From Octopus vulgaris (lineage: Eukaryota), in contig OX597822.1 in assembly GCA_951406725.2 (NCBI GenBank), positions 85,622,001 to 85,686,000 on the forward strand: DNA of 64,000 bases, written 5' to 3'. A program made the position numbers and the translations under genes. Positions within the stretch are counted from its first letter, which is position 1; every line of letters begins with the position of its first letter. This document shows positions 2,896 through 60,139 of the stretch, in pieces. The notes beneath the pieces were generated by a model that did not search any database, was not told where the DNA came from, and saw only the letters and a program-made list of their open reading frames with translations.

Positions 2896-4361
2896 AGAAA
2901 GCAGACCTGATGACTTCTTCAACACCTCTAAGTTACTAAAGAAAAAGACTCCCATCAATTACATTGACATTACGGAAGAGGATGTATTGTCAGCCACTGA
3001 CGAGATAAAAAAAAAGGCTAACCTCGATCCTAGAAGAAAATGACTTGCTTACAGACACGCAACAGGGCTTCCGTCCCTGAAGGAATTGCTTAACACAACT
3101 ACTACACCACTTCAACTGGATACTAAAACAACAGCTCAATCATTCAAATGTGGATGTGATACATCTAGACTTTTCCAAGGCCTTTGACAAAGTCGATCCT
3201 GGGGTGATATGTCACAAATTGCGTGACCTCGGTTTTGTTGGGAGAGTGGCTGTATGATTTCCTGAAGGGCAGTAGTCAGGCTGTCACAGCAAATAGTGCT
3301 CTCTCCGAAGTGACACCAATCCTCAGGAAACAGTGCTGGGACCACTACTGTTTGTGGTTGCTATCTCGGACATGACCTCAGCCATAGAGTCAGCCACACC
3401 CACCAGCTACGCAGACGATACAAAAGTATCGCTGGCGGTCAAGGATCCTACTGACATCCTAAGACTGCAGAATGACCTGAACGCAATATGTAAATGGGCT
3501 GATGAGAATAATATGCAGTTCAATGGCGCAAAATTTCAAGCACTCCACTATCAGCCCACAAACAAACTACAACTGGGGTACTCGGGACCAGCAGGCAATG
3601 TAATCCCAGAGTTAGAGTCAGTGCGTGACCTGGGAATCCACATGAGCAACGATGCAACTTTCCATGTGCACATTGCTCAGATGGCAACACTACACATGCG
3701 GGTGGCAGGTTGGATCCTTATATCCTTCAAGACCAGGAACAGAGACACAATGCTATGGAGAACCTTTGTTTTCAGTCGTCTGGACTACTACTCCCAACTG
3801 TGGTCGCCACAGAATGTAAAACTAGAAGCGATTCAACGTCACTTCACAAAGAAGATAGACTCAGTAAAACACATGGGCTACTGGGAGAGAATGAGGGAAC
3901 TGGGGCTCTACTCTCTGAAGAGAAGACGTGAGAGATATTGAGTGCTATACATGTGGGAAATAATGGAGGGTCTGGCTCCAAATTTCGGAATCGAAATCTA
4001 CAACAATCCCCGAACTGGACGGCACTGCACAACACCAAAGGTCTCATCTTCTCCATTGAGGATACGAGCCCAATATTGTAATAGCTTGGGATTCAAAGGA
4101 CCACAACTTTTTAATGCCCTACAACAGAACATCAGGGATCTGCAAGGTGTAGACATGGAAGTCTTCAAACAACGTCTAGACAGTTTTTTATCTGCAATTC
4201 CGGATGAACAGACATCGCGGCAGAAAGCACAAAGAAAAGCTGCAAAGTCCAACCCGTTACTTCACCAGAAGCAATACTGGAAAAATCCCCGGATGCAGTA
4301 AAGGCGGTGCACCAGCATGGCCTTGGCCTCTGGCTGAAATCCGTAAAAGATAAAAGATAAA
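2896..4361 (+). mobile_element. 5'-truncated, decayed CR1/L2-group LINE: reverse transcriptase, C-terminus and 3' tail
   Basis: YLDFSKAFDKVD (frameshifted), VLGPLLF, YADDTK, LQNDLNAICKWADENNMQFN, RDLG, RLDYYSQLWSP, LEAIQRHFT, LGLYSLKRRRERY, GPQLFNAL and FKQRLDSFL are present with stops and frameshifts. Ends in aaaagat repeats. Confidence 0.92.
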
Positions 4362-7909: not shown

Positions 7910-8252
7910 ATTATGGCTGCCCCCTCGTTATCGAGTATGGCCATTGCACGAAGCTTAACTGTTACTGGTGCTGTGATCGAATGTGACTTTTTAGCCCAGC
8001 TAAAGATCTACAATGTCTTGTACAAAATTGGCAACTAAAACATTTACTGGTAATAGCCGGCTGTACTTGTAACTGGGCTTCATGTACCTTTGCATGTCGT
8101 TTAAGTCCTCCTGCCGAATTACACTCTCTTCCACATGCCCGACAGATATGATTAGTATGATGTGTTACACCACCACCAGTGGCCAGGTTGTCACTCATCT
8201 GTCTCGCTTTATGACTACGAAGATGACTCATGAGTCCAGCTTTACTGAGGCA
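7910..8252 (-). mobile_element. RTE-type LINE 3' end with C2H2 zinc fingers
   Basis: CLSKAGLMSHLRSH, HICRACGRECNSAGGLKRHAKVH and FSCQFCTRHCRSLAGLKSHIRSQHQ*, followed by a short 3' UTR ending in (ATGT)n. A second copy of the tip is at 2538. Confidence 0.75.
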
Positions 8253-8271
8253 ACATACATACATATAATGG

Positions 8272-8312
<41 letters not shown>

Positions 8313-8341
8313 TGTATGTGTGTGTTTGTGTGTGTGTGTGC

Positions 8342-8383
<42 letters not shown>

Positions 8384-8449
8384 ATATAAATAAATATAGA
8401 GTAGTGGTACAACAAGGCACCATTATTTACTGAAAATATATATACATAC

Positions 8450-34701: not shown

Positions 34702-35602
34702 TGTGTGTTTATATCTATGTATATCTATGTACCATTTTACCTTACGGTTAATAGTTTATTAGAAATTCTGTTTATTTTTTTTTAATTTACATCAGTTTAA
34801 ATATGCTTGGGACATATTCGACTTGTACAAAAATCGTTTTCATTGCTAATTTGCGTAGAGAACACTTCTCGCTTTAAACAATAATTGTTGAAAAACACCA
34901 ACAGTCATTTCAAGGTAGTCATTTCACCGTTCTCTTGGCAGAACGGTGAATGCATTTCTGGTTCATTGGCAATCATCAGCACCGTGTAATACAAGAAAGA
35001 CAACCCGGAAGTGATTTCAGAAACATTTGTTTCTTCATGGTAAATTAGCATCAAATCATGAACTACTCATGCGTGACGCAGTCCCGATTAAACTGGTTTT
35101 AATTGATCTAAATGTTTGTTTGTTTACAACACTGCTTTCGGGCGCTCATCACAATGTTGCGTTTAGCCGGGGCCGACATTGCGTGTGACCACCTCACGTT
35201 GGACATCCCAGCTTTTATTCAGACGCTGTACATTTAAGACTACATTATCTATCGTCCTTTCTTTTTTTAAGACGGCAGGATGTGATATCAGGGCAATTTA
35301 GTTTCAAGTAGGTCTAGAGATTTTGTTAATTCGATGTTTCCTTGGTTTCATTTACAGGTTAATGAATAAATTTTATTTCCATACAAATCACGGGTTATTA
35401 ACGGATTATTACAATCAGGCCTATTACAGTCTACCACGTTTAAGGTGATTAAGAGAGAATAATTACTTCTCAACTGATATTGTAAGCGTATGGAGAAAAC
35501 AAAATATGATAAGCCTTAATGAATCTCAAACTAAACTAAGTTGAAAATTGCAAATTTTAATCGCTTGAAAATGGCGATATGCAGGAGTTGAGATGGGAGT
35601 CT

Positions 35603-35679
35603 GGTCTTGATAGCTATAGACATATTTCTGCCTCGTTAGACCTCTTCGGTGACAAATATTTGGCTGCTCTACCAAGACC
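35603..35679 (-). ncRNA. Degenerate hammerhead-like motif
   Basis: Minus strand reads GGUCUUGGUAG...CCGAAGA-GGUCU(AACG)AGGCA-GAAA-UAUG-UC-...CUAUCAAGACC. It has an 11-bp distal helix, a U4C core change, and a disrupted proximal stem I. Confidence 0.35.
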
Positions 35680-37369
35680 TTAAAATAGCAAATAGGTATA
35701 GCAGTTTGCGTAAAAATAATTTATTTTTAGGCTCTGGAAAATGTAAACTGTTTCACTGAAAATGATTAATAAATCCGGAATTTTGTCTTAAATTGTCACC
35801 ATAGCTACCAAACATACCCCAGCATCTCACAATTAAATTTTTAGTCGACTGAAATTTCAAGAGTTCTCTCCCTTGCTCATTTTGTAGTAAATTTCCATTT
35901 ACACTAATGACTTTTTTTTCTCATTACGATTTAACAATGATAAGCTGAACTAAACAATGTGTTCTCCGTGCAGAAAGCATCTTGATAAGTTTTCCAGTGT
36001 CTTCATTTTAATATACTGAATATTTTCACACAGAACACAATGTCCGTTCGTGGTTGTGAGACCTTAGCAACATTGCAGTGACTTTGCTTCTAGGAAGAAA
36101 TCTAATAAGACCAAAACATGTACGAAATTATAAAAGATCAAATTCTCTTCCTTCACATTGCATATCTCCAGAGTTTCTTCCCCTGACACACCTGGAATTA
36201 ACTGTCATTAACAGTAATAACATTTTTTCTTATTACAATTATAATTTCGAGTGAAAACGTTTGGTTCACTCCTTTAAAAAATGGTAACTTTCTCTTTAAA
36301 ATGCTGTGTATATCTGCCATGATACATCTAATGTGGTTCTTTACTATTCGCTGTGGAACAGGGAGGGGAAATGCACTTTATCTTCGGCATCTCATGTGAA
36401 AGCGATAAATGGCCAATAGAGATATAGATTTTTTAAGTCTTGAATTATTGATTAGTAAGCGAAGAACTTTGCAACTGGTTCCGGTGTGTTTAATGGGATT
36501 CGAGCAAAGCAGATAAAGGGGCTTGGTGGAGGGGGGTACGATGTAATCTAATAAGTGGTTTCACAGACGTAGAAGATTAAAGAGAAGAGAAGGGAGAGAG
36601 GGAGAGAAAAGAGAGGAAGGAGAGGGGGAGAAAGAAAGAGAATGAGCAAGAAGAAGAATGAGAATTAATACACGTGAAGTAAGAGGTGTTATTTAATGTA
36701 TGGCAGAGACGTGGAGATTGTTTTCATGGTTACGAGTCTTTACTTTTATGTGAGACGCAAATGTGAGTATATGTTGAGTGACAGAGACTAACTATATTCG
36801 AGGTTATTAATCAACTACACGCATATAAATGCAATATATATATATTGCGTGTCTGTGTGGTAAGAAGCTTGCTTCCCAACCACATGGTATCGGGTTCAGT
36901 CCTACTGCGTTGCACCTTGGGCAAGTGTCTTCTATAACCTTTAAGTTCCCATCTACCAAATCCACTTACAAGGCTTTGGTCGGCCCGAAGCTATAGCAGC
37001 AGACACTTACCCAAGGTGCCACGCAATAGGACTGAATCCGGATCCATATGGTTGGCAAGCAATCTTCTCATCACACTGCCACGCAAGAAGATGGAATAAA
37101 CATAATTTAATTACAAAACACAACAATTGTTTCTGTGCAATGGTAACAGCAGCTAGGCGCTGGTTTCCTATCTTATACGTACCGTTATATAGATATGACA
37201 TAAATATGATTCCGTAGTAGCTCTGTACTCGCACGTCATCAGGTGAGTGACTTCGAAATCACAAACGAAACAATTGTAGGTGAATATATTAATTAATAAA
37301 TTAATTTGTATCCATTAGATCTCTGTTCTCTAACTCAATAATAATGTTTAACATTTTACGATACATATA

Positions 37370-37434
<65 letters not shown>

Positions 37435-37508
37435 AAACAATACTGGGAGGATAAGAAACGGAACGAAGCGAAGAATCGAACGAACCCGACGCGAAGCGCT
37501 GTCAGACA

Positions 37509-38509
37509 ATAGTGTAATAAATAAAATATATGCATACATACAAACATATATGTACGTACCTACATCTACATGTATATATACATGCATATATAAATATATA
37601 TACGTAAGTACAGGACACCTCAAAAAGACGTAGAACTCGACAGAAACGAAAACGGAAAAGCCATTTTTTTACAACAGAAAGACAGAGACGTGGAACAGGA
37701 CGAGAACGAAAACGGGAAAAACATTATTTACAACAGAAAAACAAGGTATAGGACAAGCTACACAAGGAAAATCTCCAATCATCAGTTGTCGCTAGTAGAC
37801 TTAGCGTGTTTCGAAGGCAAGACAGGACACGACTCGTCAATACTAGGCCTTCCTGCGAGAGAATTAAAATAAAATAACCTCGCAGAGGGGTAAAACAAGC
37901 ACGAAAAAAATGTAACACAAACAGGATGTAACAATAAAACTGCACAATAAAATACAAGATAAAAATACATGTACAAGAAAATACAAAACGAGAAATAAAA
38001 TACAATACGAGAAATCAAAATAAACAAGAAAACAAACGAGAAAAACAAACGAAAGGCCTTTGTTCTGGCTGGGACGGAAGAGGTTCTGGCAAGCGCATGG
38101 AAACACGACTTTCGTGCTTGTTTTACCCCTCTGCGAGGTTATTTTATTTTAGTTCTCTCGCATGAAGGCCTAGTATTGACGAGTCGTGTCCTGTCTTGCC
38201 TTCGAAACACGCTAAGTCTACTAGCGACAGCTGATGATTGGGGATTTTCCTTGTGTAGCTTGTCCTGTACCTTGTTTTTCTGCTGTAAATAATGTTTTTC
38301 CCGTTTTCGTTCTCGTCCTGTTCCACGTCTCTGTCTTTCTGTTGTAAAAAAATGGCTTTTCCGTTTTCGTTTCTGTCGAGTTCTACGTCTTTTTGTGGTG
38401 TCCTGTACTTATGTATATATATTTATATATGCATGTATATATACATGTAGATGTAGGTACGTACATATATGTTTGTATGTATGCATATATTTTATTTATT
38501 ACACACTAT
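37509..38509. mobile_element. ~400-bp near-perfect inverted repeat (arms 37509-37906 and 38110-38509), probable PLE inverted pseudo-LTR structure
   Basis: The arms are reverse complementary with roughly 8-10 differences by eye, separated by a 203-bp spacer. The ORF track shows twin 60-aa ORFs on opposite strands. Confidence 0.92.
38170..38224 (+). ncRNA. Type-I hammerhead-like motif (U3 variant); identical mirror copy at 37792-37846 (-)
   Basis: CUAGUA-UUGACGA-G(UCGUGUCCUGUCUUGCCUU)C-GAAA-C(ACGCUAA)G-UC-UACUAG. Perfect 6-bp stem I and a GUC cleavage triplet. Confidence 0.6.
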
Positions 38510-39664
38510 ATATATACATACGGATATACGGGGTACGGTAATATACATGGAGTTTAACAATTTATTAAAATTTCTAGACATAATTTGATCAAATATTGTG
38601 GCGCAGGCCTGTGCTGTGTGGTTAAGAAGTTCACTTTGCAGCCACCTGGTTTTGGGTTCAGTCCCACTGCGCAGCACCTTGGTTAAGTAACCTTCACAAA
38701 AGCACCGGGCCGACCAACGCCTTGCCGTTAAGTTTGGTGGGCGGAAACTGTGCGGAAGATCGTGTGTATTGTGTTGTGTGATGCGGGCGTGTGTGTGTGT
38801 GTGTGTGTGCGTGTGTGTGTGTGTGTGTGTTGATATTGGTTTCGATTTTTTCCAATCATAAAATGGCCAAACCGCTAATTCTCACACCACAACCACCGTC
38901 TCTTATGTCTTCGGCTTGCTGGAAATAGCAGCCGAAATTATCACAAATCACGCCTTGTTGCTTTAAAGAAAATATATATTAAACAGAGTGTTGCTGTAAA
39001 GAAAGACAGAATGGTCATGGCTGGAAAGCCTTTCATCAGTCCTCTACTCGATCGGAGCTCATCACTCGGGGTTAAACCACTACAACGACGATGACGGTAA
39101 GTCAACAAGGGTATTTATTTGTGGATGATCAACTTGCTAGAAATAACAGCCAAATCACTCCCTCAAATTTCGCCCAGCAGCTTTAAAAGAAGGATGTGTC
39201 ATGTTGCATAATAGAGTCTAAGATAAAATATCTGGGATAATGGAATGGTCGTGGTTAGACTGTCTTTGATCACGGGATATGTTCAGTCAGGATCGTCATA
39301 AGTCTAAACAACAAAAATAATGGCGACGACGGACGGCAGACGACGACGACGGACGGCGGACGGCACACGACGACGACGACACCTATTCTTAACGACCAGT
39401 TATAAGAACAGAAGATATTTGCTTCTTGCAGCAACAAACTGTAACTCAGTGGTCGCTGCTAGTGTCAGCTTTATCTGTCGCAACCCACACAATATCCAAT
39501 AACCAATCTATATTATATGCGGCACCTCATCACATCACACCCACAATTATACGGCATTACATTAGCGCGCGCAGTCACACACACACACACACACATCTGT
39601 TAACCCACAGTCGCATCGGTTTTATGTATACACACACACACACATACACACACACACACACATA

Positions 39665-39715
<51 letters not shown>

Positions 39716-40010
39716 AAACACAACACTGGTTTCAAATTTCGGGGGAGGGATAAAGTCGATTGCATCGACGCCCCTATCCTCCCTCTCCACTGGTACTTAT
39801 TTTTTTTTATCGATCTCTGAAAGGATAACAGGTGAAGTTGACGTCAGCGGAATTTGAACTCAGAACGGAAAGACGAACGAAATGCTGCTGAGCGTTTTAT
39901 CCGGCGTGCTCACGATTCTGCCAGCTCGCCCTTGAGAGACACACAGTCAATACTGACATACAGACACACTGACCTACTACACACAATAGAACGGTAGGTA
40001 CGCGCGGATG

Positions 40011-40058
<48 letters not shown>

Positions 40059-41199
40059 AACACACACACAAACACACATACAAACACACACACGCACAAA
40101 TACACACACGCACACATACAAACACACACACGCACCCACACACACATACAAACATACACACGTACAAACACACACGCACGCACACACATGCACGCACACA
40201 CACACATACAAGCACACACACGCACAAACACACAGACAAACACACACACATACACACACACACACAAATACACACAAACGCACACACACAAACACGTACA
40301 CATACATGTTAACGAACCGTGGAGAGAGAATCGCCACGCGATATCTCGAAAAGCTAGAAATAGCAACCAAATCTCCCTCAAAGCACGTTTCACACTTATG
40401 ATCCTCAGTTATAATGACTTTCACCACAAGTCTGATTCTCCGTGACCTTCCACTAAACAACAACAACAACATCAATAATCCATTGAAAATATTAAACAAT
40501 TAAAATGAAATTAAGCTCAAACAACATTATCACTTTCCGCCACTCTACAACCCACCCTACCCCCAGCCTCCCTCTCCCAGCTTCCCTCCCCACTCCTACC
40601 CCCAGCAAGGGCACATTCTCTCATCCGCACACCTACATAAAACATTTCACCTTAAATTAATCAATAAAAATAATCTCCCTCTTTCAGTTTTTTTAAGTAC
40701 TTTTTTTTTTTGTAATCGGTTGAGCTTGCAGTTTTGTGTACAATCGTATGTAAAACTACAGATATATGTGTGAATGTATGTCTGTACTATGTATGCATGT
40801 CTGCGTGTGTTTCCTAGGTATATAATAGCCTAATGCAGCTGTGATAGGTAAAAACGTAGGGTGTGTGTGTTCATGTTTGCAGTGAAGGCGCGTAGCTTAG
40901 TGGTTTAGGATATTCGGCTCTCGACCGTTAACTGGTGAGTCCGATACTCGGCGGCGTGTTATGTCCTTGAGCAAGACACTTTACATTGCCCCATCCACTC
41001 ATCTGGCAAAAGCGCGTAGTACCTGTATTTCAAAGGGCCAGCCTCGCCAAATTCTGACACACGCATACCCTTAACGTAGTTCTAAGTGTACGCATGTCTG
41101 TGGAGTGCTCAGCCACGTTAATTTCACGTGCAGACAGTTCCGTTGATCGAATCAGCTGCAAGTATAATCTCTTACATTAAGGGCTATTATCTTCATCTT

Positions 41200-50490: not shown

Positions 50491-50725
50491 TGGAATGCTG
50501 GCCTGCTTGCCTTCTGATTGGAGGGATGCTGGCCTTTCTGCCTTCCAATCAAGGGAGAATGCTGGCCTGCCTCCCTCCAATCAAGGAGGAATGCTGGCAT
50601 TCCTGCCTTCCAACCGGGGAGAATGCTGGCCTGCTTGCCTTCTGATCAGGGGGGAATGCTGGCCTTTTTGCCTTCCAGTCAGGGAGAATGCTGGCCTGCC
50701 TGCCTTCCAATCAGCAGAGAATGCT
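50491..50725. repeat. ~32-bp minisatellite, ~7.5 units
   Basis: Unit gg(a/g)gaatgctggcct(gc/tt)(c/t)tgccttc(c/t)(a/g)atca. Confidence 0.9.
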
Positions 50726-50879
50726 GAAGGTCATATTGAAGAGGAAAACAAGAGTATGGAAAGGGAATTCCAAAGTTCAGAGGTGCGAGGGAAGAAACTG
50801 GTTCTGTAAAGTGCTTTATGACACTTAGATGGTTGCACAGTATACTGATGAGAACTGGTTGCAAGTCTAGTTGATTGCT

Positions 50880-51760
50880 AAGTTCTTAAAGGAGGAAGCA
50901 GAGAAGAGAGCTCAGCTGAACAATGTCCATGAAAATACTTACAGAAAAGAGACAAGGAAGTCACATGATGATGATGAGAGAGTGAATCCAATTTAGAAGA
51001 TAGATCAAGACCCAAAACATTAGAAATATGGCATTGAATGTTATCCAACAGAGTTAAACAATCTGCAGGAGCATCTGCCCACATATGACAACAGTACTCA
51101 ATGCAGGGGCAAATGCTGCACTTTTAAAGATAAAGAATAATCTCAGGAGTGAGATAACTCCTTGAACGAAGGAGTGAGCCTACCTTCATTGCAGCCGATT
51201 TGGCAATAGGTTCAATGTAAGTCCTCAAAGGAAAATCATTACAGAAAGTCACTCCTAGAGGACAAAGGAACGTCTCTCAGGTAAGTCAATACCATCCATC
51301 GAAACCGATGGCAAGAAAGGATGTCTGAAGTGATTAATTGAGAGAATTTTAGTTTCCGATGGATCGAACATTACAAGCCATTTCCTACCCCACTCAACAT
51401 TAGATCGAAGATCATTATCAAGATTAGCAGCGATCTCAACCTTATCAGACAAGTCATCAGATTTGTCCAAACAAGAGTACAAAGTAGAGTCATCAGCAGA
51501 GATTACTAGCTGACAGGTGATATGATCAGGCAGATCATTGATAAAAAGAAGAAAGGGAGTTGGGCCAAGGACAGTGTTAATAGAAAAACTAGATGAAGAT
51601 TGACCATCAAGAACAACCTTGATCCTACGGTCATAAAGGAAAGTGGAGATGATGTTCAGCATGAAACCTGACACACCAAAGGATTGGAGCTTCCATAGAA
51701 TTCCAGCATACCAAACCCTATCAAATGCCTTAGAGATATCAAGAACAACTGCCCTGGCTT
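50880..51760 (-). mobile_element. CR1/L2/Jockey-group LINE reverse transcriptase fragment
   Basis: LDISKAFDRVWYAGILWKL, FLYDRRIKVVLDGQSS, VLGPTPFLLFINDL, ISADDSTL, WGRKWLVMFDPSETK, EYCCHMWA and LSLFCKYFHG. Confidence 0.9.
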
Positions 51761-51774
51761 GACTTTCTCTTCTG

Positions 51775-51946
51775 GTGGATCATTTAATTATGATTTTATT
51801 CAACATATTCCCCTCACAGATTCACACACTTATTGCAGCAGTCCTTCAATTTTTCTAACCCTTGTAAAGGAACTCAAAAGGTTGGGCTTCCAACCAGGCC
51901 TTTCGTGATACCCTTAAAGCCAGGAACTCTTCGGCACCCCCTCATA
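51775..51946 (-). mobile_element. Short mariner-type MITE fragment
   Basis: The minus strand begins ta-tgagggggtgccgaagagttcctggcttt and carries the mariner C-terminal remnant CNKCVNL.GEYVE. Confidence 0.55.
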
Positions 51947-59595: not shown

Positions 59596-59800
59596 ATCAG
59601 TGTCAGCAATTCTTGCTGTCTATGTCAGCAGTTGTTGCTGTCAGTGTCAGTAATTATTGCTGTTTGTGTCAGCAGTTGTTGCTGTTAGTGTCAGCAATTA
59701 TTGCTGTCAGTGTCAGCAGTTGTTGCTGTCAGTGTCAGCAATTATTGCTGTCAGTGTCAGCAGTTGTTGCTGTCAGTGTCAGCAATTATTGCTGTTAGTG
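59596..59800. repeat. 22-bp minisatellite, ~9 units, just inside the intron after coding exon 2
   Basis: Alternating units tcagtgtcagcagttgttgctg / tcagtgtcagcaattattgctg. Confidence 0.9.
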
Positions 59801-60139
59801 TCATGCCAACATTGACAGTATCCACTATCAACAGTTGTTGCTATCAATCTTAACATTGTTACCATTGCTTCTACCTCATTATCATTTTTATCCTCATCAT
59901 TATTCAATATTTTCTATCCTCTCTAATCCCATTATCATCATCTTCATTACCATCATGATCATATCCATCACATAATTAATAATCTTGGGAAAAGCACGAC
60001 GATCACCACCTCAGTTTTATCCTGTTTAAGAAAATATAAAAAATCTTTCTCCAAACAATCACCTTCAACCTCATTTTCATCTTTTTCTTCTTCTTTATCT
60101 TCTTTTTTGATGTTTAATGATTGATTTTGTCTCTCTTAG

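Follow-up and report, generated by a model that had tools for sequence, protein, structure and literature searches.

A head-to-head insertion of a non-coding Penelope-type repeat in Octopus vulgaris whose arms carry a predicted split-core, doubly pseudoknotted hammerhead fold

The window, meaning the whole 64,000-nt stretch of Octopus vulgaris DNA that was analysed (contig OX597822.1, positions 85,622,001 to 85,686,000), contains one insertion, in head-to-head layout, of a non-coding repeat that targets (TA)n and has ends of the Penelope type. In window coordinates, the locus is composed of the following parts.

37361..37431, no strand: (TA)n target microsatellite; an AT run is also present 3' of the right end
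37430..38112, minus strand: longer copy of the non-coding repeat, containing the so-called spacer; covers unit 1-683 and stops at the far fixed 3' end
37430..37508, minus strand: tail between the two fixed 3' ends, on one copy only; copies of the family end at unit 604 or 681-683
38110..38509, plus strand: shorter copy in the opposite orientation; unit positions 207-604, ending at the near fixed 3' end
38273..38390, plus strand: two 60-nt tandem units within the repeat; subfamily B has a single unit

The long and short copies abut with a 3-nt overlap (38110-38112). Their inverted arms, 37512-37906 and 38110-38504, are 395 nt each and 98% complementary with eight mismatches, and 203 nt lie between them, as had been claimed in a first-pass annotation of this DNA. 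The 203-nt "spacer" of that annotation was, however, not a separate part but belonged to the longer left copy (minus strand 38112-37430) as its unique 5' portion; this copy extends 77-79 nt beyond the arm end as the tail of the element. When compared with the family majority, each arm had four private changes, which together make up the eight mismatches, and a one-way A-to-G pattern was absent among these eight. The four private changes in each arm indicated that the insertion is young and an assembly error unlikely; as the inverted layout was also repeated at other sites, the reading of the inversion as an assembly artefact can practically be dismissed. No read or contig covering the complete locus was seen, which counts neither for nor against this reading. 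Two repeats that we take to be SINE-like flank the insertion (36855-37080 and 38600-38770). Elsewhere in the window, three fragments were seen at 3297-3941 (+), 51255-51779 (-) and 7962-8426 (-), presumably two of the non-LTR reverse transcriptase type and one C2H2 zinc-finger tail of a non-LTR element, along with minisatellites at 50493-50726 (32/65-nt period) and 59597-59803 (22/44-nt period).

A 181-nt query gave 1,529 first-look candidates in the 2.8-Gb genome. An exact 22-mer common to subfamilies A and B occurred 298 times and a related 22-mer pattern for subfamilies C and D 611 times, and the family comprised hundreds of close copies. The copies stop either at unit 604 (window 37509/38509) or at unit 681-683 (37430), and these two fixed 3' ends nearly always adjoin an AT-type microsatellite, mostly (TA)n, while the 5' ends are ragged. 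Longer copies continue 5' via a 164-nt linker into the 3' part of the unit itself, indicating a unit of approximately 845 nt that closes on itself. Subfamily C had a 775-nt unit with the same two-end layout, and some insertions exceeded one unit and carried two ribozymes (L006, L053 and L132). In an unselected sample, the inverted layout was present at approximately 5 of the 28 distinct sites, and the loci L002, L006, L037, L043, L051 and L056 are examples of it.

The two fixed 3' ends with the tail, the partial tandems, the (TA)n target and the recurrent inverted layouts agreed with the earlier proposal that this is a Penelope-type insertion whose 5' copy is inverted. Penelope-like elements (PLEs) have been described with (TA)n targets and tails as well as with partial tandems and inverted 5' copies (Craig 2021, PMC8557442), the tail has been linked to two reverse-transcription start sites (Frangieh 2024, PMC11167929), and opposite-strand hammerhead pairs 100-700 bp apart were already noted in PLE repeats (Cervera and de la Pena 2014, PMC4209133). 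Because such layouts are described in these reports and recur within the family, the inversion is ordinary; the inverted repeat itself is already known in kind and adds nothing new.

No ORF was common to the repeat copies, and the reverse transcriptase plus GIY-YIG ORF of an autonomous PLE was absent from the unit. Two PLE families with 717-aa and 784-aa ORFs, both abundant, (TA)n-flanked and with many open frames, were considered as autonomous partners and rejected, as they had type-I hammerheads of their own and 3' ends without similarity to the unit. The 717-aa family (L068, L061-L085) gave 23,081 first-look candidates; it had two fixed ends approximately 65 nt apart, and its 3' end contained a type-I hammerhead-like motif in which the core was CCGAAGA (U4C), GAAA was preceded by a U and helix III was palindromic. 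The Neptune-like family with 784-aa frames (L182, L204 and L191) carried, close to its 3' end, a type-I hammerhead whose core was the U3-A8 variant. Minimal type-I hammerheads of the ordinary kind (CUGACGA, 4-bp stem II, GAAACGUU) were also seen in short repeats of L019 (minus strand, on the upstream side of the repeat), L117 (on its downstream side) and L301; one of these short repeats terminated in ACACTAT...CTTCGCGT, a motif resembling the end of the present family.

Within each arm, the segments known from hammerhead ribozymes were found in an unusual arrangement. Eckert et al. 2023 (PMC10085705) divide the hammerhead into blocks C, G and S, and in this notation the order from 5' to 3' was a stem II strand, the bridging helix, the cleavage site (block S), the GAAA block (block G), the bridging helix again, and a stem I strand followed by CUGAUGA. 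The parts at this locus are listed below.

38164..38169, plus strand: 5' strand of stem II, G10.1 first, pairing with 38198-38203; it lies upstream of, and apart from, the CUGAUGA strand
38170..38180, plus strand: 5' strand of the bridging helix, with a UU bulge; it includes most of a non-conserved UUGACGA (38176-38182)
38185..38195, plus strand: block S, composed of the stem III strand with U16.1 (38185-38189), C17 (38190) and the stem I strand (38191-38195); predicted cut at 38190/38191 after GUC
38196..38197, plus strand: UU linker from stem I to stem II
38198..38211, plus strand: block G, composed of the 3' strand of stem II (38198-38203), GAAA (38204-38207) and the stem III partner (38207-38211)
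38216..38224, plus strand: 3' strand of the bridging helix; the preceding loop has AA here and GA in relatives
38226..38237, plus strand: stem I partner (38226-38230), then the putative catalytic CUGAUGA, C3-A9 (38231-38237)
37779..37852, minus strand: mirror ribozyme in the left copy; predicted cut between 37826 and 37825

All the core bases and stems were intact in the right arm. In the left arm, a G-to-A change at 37786 in the mismatch list against the family alignment breaks the first pair of stem I. When the two core boxes were held fixed, the three stems appeared in this order in only 17 of 20,000 shuffles. The sequence evidence makes it very likely that each arm has a hammerhead-type fold in the knotted S-G-C order, with the backbone open between A9 and G10.1, and it places the predicted catalytic core in the downstream, or second, CUGAUGA rather than in UUGACGA. 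The pseudoknotted hammerhead variant proposed in the first-pass annotation was thus supported as a fold, with covarying stems. The pairings between loop and flanks that it noted were also real; they corresponded, however, to the ribozyme's own stems I and II, not to switches acting on a type-I fold.

Pairing was counted in 203 copies of seven subfamilies (A-G), which remained of 305 hits after the removal of partial copies, identical duplicates, hits at locus edges, one hit lacking the core pattern and five divergent copies. Subfamilies A-G had been gathered by stepping from copy to diverged copy and remote families were found only in the flanks of collected loci, so that the list of subfamilies is incomplete; two others, H and I (L174:638-753 minus; L291:316-429 minus; L170; L099:3220-3328 minus), had other stem III sequences and few or decayed copies. 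Pairs 1-5 of stem I held in 188/192, 191/192, 190/192, 198/202 and 200/202 copies, with the swaps C-G/U-A, U-A/C-G and C-G/U-A; the stem was CUGUC/GACAG in A-D, UCGCC/GGCGA in E and UUGUY/RACAA in G. For stem III, pairs 1-4 held in 198, 193, 200 and 196 of the 203 copies, and the fifth pair was lost in B. Its A15.1-U16.1 was fixed, the swaps were C-G/U-A and A-U/G-C, and the variants comprised CGUGU/ACACG, CAUGU/ACGUG, CGCGU/ACGCG and CGUAU/AUACG. The upstream stem II held at pairs 1-5 in 198, 202, 197, 195 and 192 of the 203 copies with a fixed G10.1-C11.1; it was GAAGG/CCUUC in A-F and GAGCA/UGCUC in G, three two-sided swaps that, within A-G, all sit on one branch. All six pairs of the bridging helix changed on both sides, the G rows being off register by one column. 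As a side observation, L150 had a 19-nt piece (the upstream stem II strand plus the bridging helix) in three tandem copies, probably by reverse-transcriptase slippage.

The downstream CUGANGA was nearly invariant in all seven subfamilies, as were the core boxes and U16.1, although this invariance is slightly inflated by a capture step that demanded each core box within one change (one full-length hit failed). The free position N7 was U or A, and position 17 was C, U or A depending on the subfamily and G in only one of the 203 copies, in agreement with the NUH rule. In 50 rows chosen for intactness, 17 of 21 pairs changed on both sides, when compared to 4-6 in slid controls, and none of 500 shuffles reached this number, while both the relatedness of the copies and the choice of rows inflate such counts of two-sided changes. 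Related sequence occurred in sequencing runs of four organisms, none of the runs being listed as RNA. Compared with the window, the contigs of two other organisms had changes at position 17, in the flanks, and in the bridging helix with its loop, with no listed change in the three stems or the core save a minor G8 variant.

A sequence-blind descriptor applied to all collected loci identified a further family, J, which had the same split-core wiring as A-G but wholly different stems, with stem II being GGCUG/CAGCC (2,558 first-look candidates; loci L298-L327, L271:351-475 and L043:1860-1979). Stems I and III covaried within this family. In its subgroup J2 (33 copies), the upstream stem II paired in 28-33 of the 33 copies per position and N7 was G, C or A. 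Taken over the 203 copies and 48 J copies (J3 was decayed), the full hammerhead core C3-U4-G5-A6-N7-G8-A9, G12-A13-A14, A15.1-U16.1 and H17 was present, and stems I, II and III abutted the core and covaried, with G10.1-C11.1 closing stem II. Tandem GA, a kink-turn feature, was found in C, in most B and J1 copies and in the published consensus Naiad_Obim, and J1 looked canonical, while the window's subfamily had AA and a short bulge at this position. A kink-turn is thus plausible in B, C, J1 and Naiad_Obim and appears degenerate in the window's subfamily by its sequence; the loop before the 3' strand of the bridging helix may be a kink-turn family-wide.

Self-cleavage of the predicted split-core hammerhead appears probable. 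Although the flanks of the subfamilies are only 50-70% alike, the catalytic bases, the NUH rule and the free N7 have been kept, as expected under selection for catalysis. This conservation argues against the most serious alternative, that of a conserved hammerhead that is vestigial or without catalytic activity and serves as a binding or packaging signal for a Penelope-like reverse transcriptase, a reading we regard as unlikely but deserving of weight. Indeed, the planned test of 5' ends showed no pile-up: 0 of 92 A/B sites and 2 of 93 C/D sites began within 2 nt of the predicted cut, and 2 of 32 truncations within 60 nt fell at the cut (p ~0.47). A silent fold would also be consistent with the poor cleavage of PLE hammerheads in vitro (PMC4209133) and with the insertion of one Poseidon element without need for cleavage (PMC11167929). 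Against it, six E and F copies did begin at the predicted cut (4/26 in E and 2/29 in F), in sets examined only post hoc, and TA microhomology could explain part of this pile-up.

The predicted energies showed competing structures. The best nested fold of the window segment was a competitor at -17.6 kcal/mol versus -11.7 kcal/mol for the nested part of the model, and an upstream GCRG can pair with C3-U4-G5, masking the core in duplexes of -3 to -8 kcal/mol. The first-pass annotation expected one ribozyme plus a long dsRNA hairpin from transcription of either side; this is doubtful, as read-through produces the antisense arm first and the hairpin, predicted at -725 kcal/mol between the arms, likely buries the ribozyme. 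In such a model, read-through RNA at this locus probably forms the 395-bp hairpin rather than an active ribozyme.

The position of the stem II strand was the point at which the fold departed from known designs. Eckert et al. 2023 (PMC10085705) show cleavage by type-SGC ribozymes and their dependence on a fourth helix between stems I and II, and take the blocks to be uninterruptible. The octopus fold shared with them the order S, G, C, two pseudoknots, a short linker from stem I to stem II and an additional helix that connects these two stems at their far ends, but its stem II strand did not follow A9 within 1-2 nt, and block C was interrupted. The covarying Watson-Crick partner of the 3' strand of stem II lay upstream, whereas a downstream partner was weak in A-G and absent in J2, where the alternative paired in 0-2 of 33 copies at four of five positions. 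The lack of a downstream partner in J2 indicates a backbone open between A9 and G10.1. A further helix between the flanks that would close this gap was equalled by 13-85% of shuffles.

The arrangement could alternatively be a plain type-SGC hammerhead, active with a stem II built from the G-run after CUGAUGA, the upstream strand being an inhibitor. Most A-G copies could form a downstream stem II of 4 bp, in which the change seen in G (G-C to U-G) leaves a pair in place, and the upstream strand can also mask the core. However, the first downstream pair fails in 27 of 46 A copies, including that of the window, the third is U-U in B, the stem is rich in wobbles (-2 to -3 versus -6 to -8 kcal/mol) and it cannot form in J2. 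Moreover, the bridging helix joins straight onto the upstream strand, as the 'I' helix of Eckert et al. does onto stem II. These points leave the plain type-SGC fold with a small chance of being correct.

The first-pass annotation had instead read a type-I hammerhead, in which UUGACGA was the U3 core, stem II had a single pair and the cut followed the GUC at 38216-38218. All of the motifs that it quoted (CUAGUA/UACUAG, UUGACGA, GAAA, GUC, GCCUUC/GAAGGC, CUGUC/GACAG and the second CUGAUGA) were present in both arms; their order was as expected in the window, and likewise in 40 of the 46 A copies. U3 cores are known in PLE hammerheads as U3-A8 (PMC4209133) and occur in the Neptune-like family here. 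This core and its cut site were nevertheless not conserved in the sister subfamilies. The motif [CU]UGANGA occurred in the interval from the upstream strand to the cleavage block in 40/46 A, 11/29 B, 1/40 C and 1/15 D copies and in none of the E (0/20), F (0/24) and G (0/29) copies, and the UUGACGA-like motif of B was out of register with the helix. No CUGANGA-like core was conserved across the family 5' of GAAA and the cut site, where a minimal type-I PLE hammerhead would have it. The proposed core and cut regions actually paired with each other in a covarying helix, and the type-I fold was predicted at +2.9 kcal/mol; it is extremely improbable. An Rfam scan of 35000-41000 gave no hammerhead match at E<=10, and its matches were AT-rich miRNA only, under the gathering scores. 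Two further folds were rejected: an HDV-like fold (P1 GAAGGC/GCCUUC, J4/2 CUAAG), as the would-be J4/2 varied in length and sequence among subfamilies, and a type-II hammerhead, as the hairpin stem I was absent after the GUC of the first-pass annotation.

The locus is probably best explained as a head-to-head Penelope-type insertion, the arms of which carry a split S-G-C hammerhead likely cutting multimers into unit RNAs. The ribozyme would most likely cut multimeric or read-through transcripts once per unit, after GUC, with the core folding despite the A9/G10.1 backbone gap and cleavage being slow or protein-assisted. A Penelope-like enzyme would then start at two internal sites and copy the unit RNA, as a linear multimer or a circle, into (TA)n, so that circularisation or multimer templates may be involved, and two priming events at one site could give the inversion. 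The repeat may also be kin to Naiad elements.

Among a limited number of entries of the Craig 2021 supplement (PMC8557442) that were read by eye, the ends of four published Naiad consensus sequences shared the split wiring but had stems of different sequence. In Naiad_Obim and Naiad_Ovul the end was GACAC...AUGGUA, cut, CUGCCC...GUGUC GAAA CCAU...GGGCAG CUGAUGA, and two other consensus ends had stem II GGCUCC/GGAGCC and GGCCCC/GGGGCC (supplement parts 10 and 12). Near-copies of the part 10 end were present in part 11, and at least one Naiad end in the supplement had a core in the conventional order instead. The supplement gives (TA)n targets for both octopus Naiads and marks Naiad_Ovul with 'HHR_half_core', and the paper reports no canonical hammerhead in Naiads and describes cephalopod Naiads as long inactive. 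Naiads and the present repeat share (TA)n targeting, a tail at one end, partial tandems, inverted 5' copies and the split wiring. In contrast, Naiads encode N-terminal GIY-YIG, CxC and reverse transcriptase domains and the repeat has no ORF; the stem sequences of the ends compared by eye differ; and cephalopod Naiads are reported as long inactive (PMC8557442), whereas the repeat family here is young. With somewhat less assurance than for cleavage itself, we favour the view that a split, twice-knotted active hammerhead is the standard ribozyme of Naiads and of thousands of non-coding repeats in this genome, which would replicate via unit-length circular RNAs.

If the ribozyme cleaves, the hammerhead core would tolerate an interrupted backbone at a joint so far regarded as fixed, a permutation class would be added beyond the six enumerated in 2023, and non-circular permutations would be present in animal genomes in thousands of copies. 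Cleavage would likewise account for the 'half-core' motifs of Naiad elements, and the large Naiad clade could no longer be regarded as spreading without a ribozyme.

Judged by its sequence, the putative ribozyme extends the non-circularly permuted hammerheads by a new variant. A hammerhead split at A9/G10.1 was found nowhere in the portions of the literature searched, including PMC3088659, PMC10162972 and PMC13725137; subscription papers, bioRxiv supplements and the supplement of Eckert et al. were outside this scope and could contain one. The split fold would escape published descriptors because block C was assumed to be unbreakable. Like the type-SGC/CSG hammerheads (Eckert 2023, PMC10085705), it has the S-G-C cyclic order, two pseudoknots, the full core, a short linker between stems I and II and an extra helix joining their far ends. 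In that scheme, however, block C is CUGANGA with the adjoining strands of stems I and II, whereas here the stem II strand is the 5'-most element and CUGANGA the last, and the validated SGC ribozymes came from metatranscriptome/metagenome searches and not from high-copy genomic repeats of an animal. The minimal type-I PLE hammerheads (PMC4209133) likewise lie in PLE repeats and include opposite-strand pairs 100-700 bp apart, but they have the type-I order, a palindromic or absent helix III and dimer dependence, while helix III here is a 5-bp non-palindromic stem. The non-LTR retrozymes (PMC7229834; bioRxiv 10.64898/2026.07.22.740005), proposed to be non-autonomous PLE derivatives moving via circular RNA, also comprise non-coding head-to-tail units with one hammerhead. 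Their hammerheads are of type I and their units, approximately 200-400 nt in the examples given, form tandem arrays, whereas the non-coding and partly tandem repeat described here has units of 775-845 nt, is mostly 1-1.7 units long and carries a knotted ribozyme that is not of type I.
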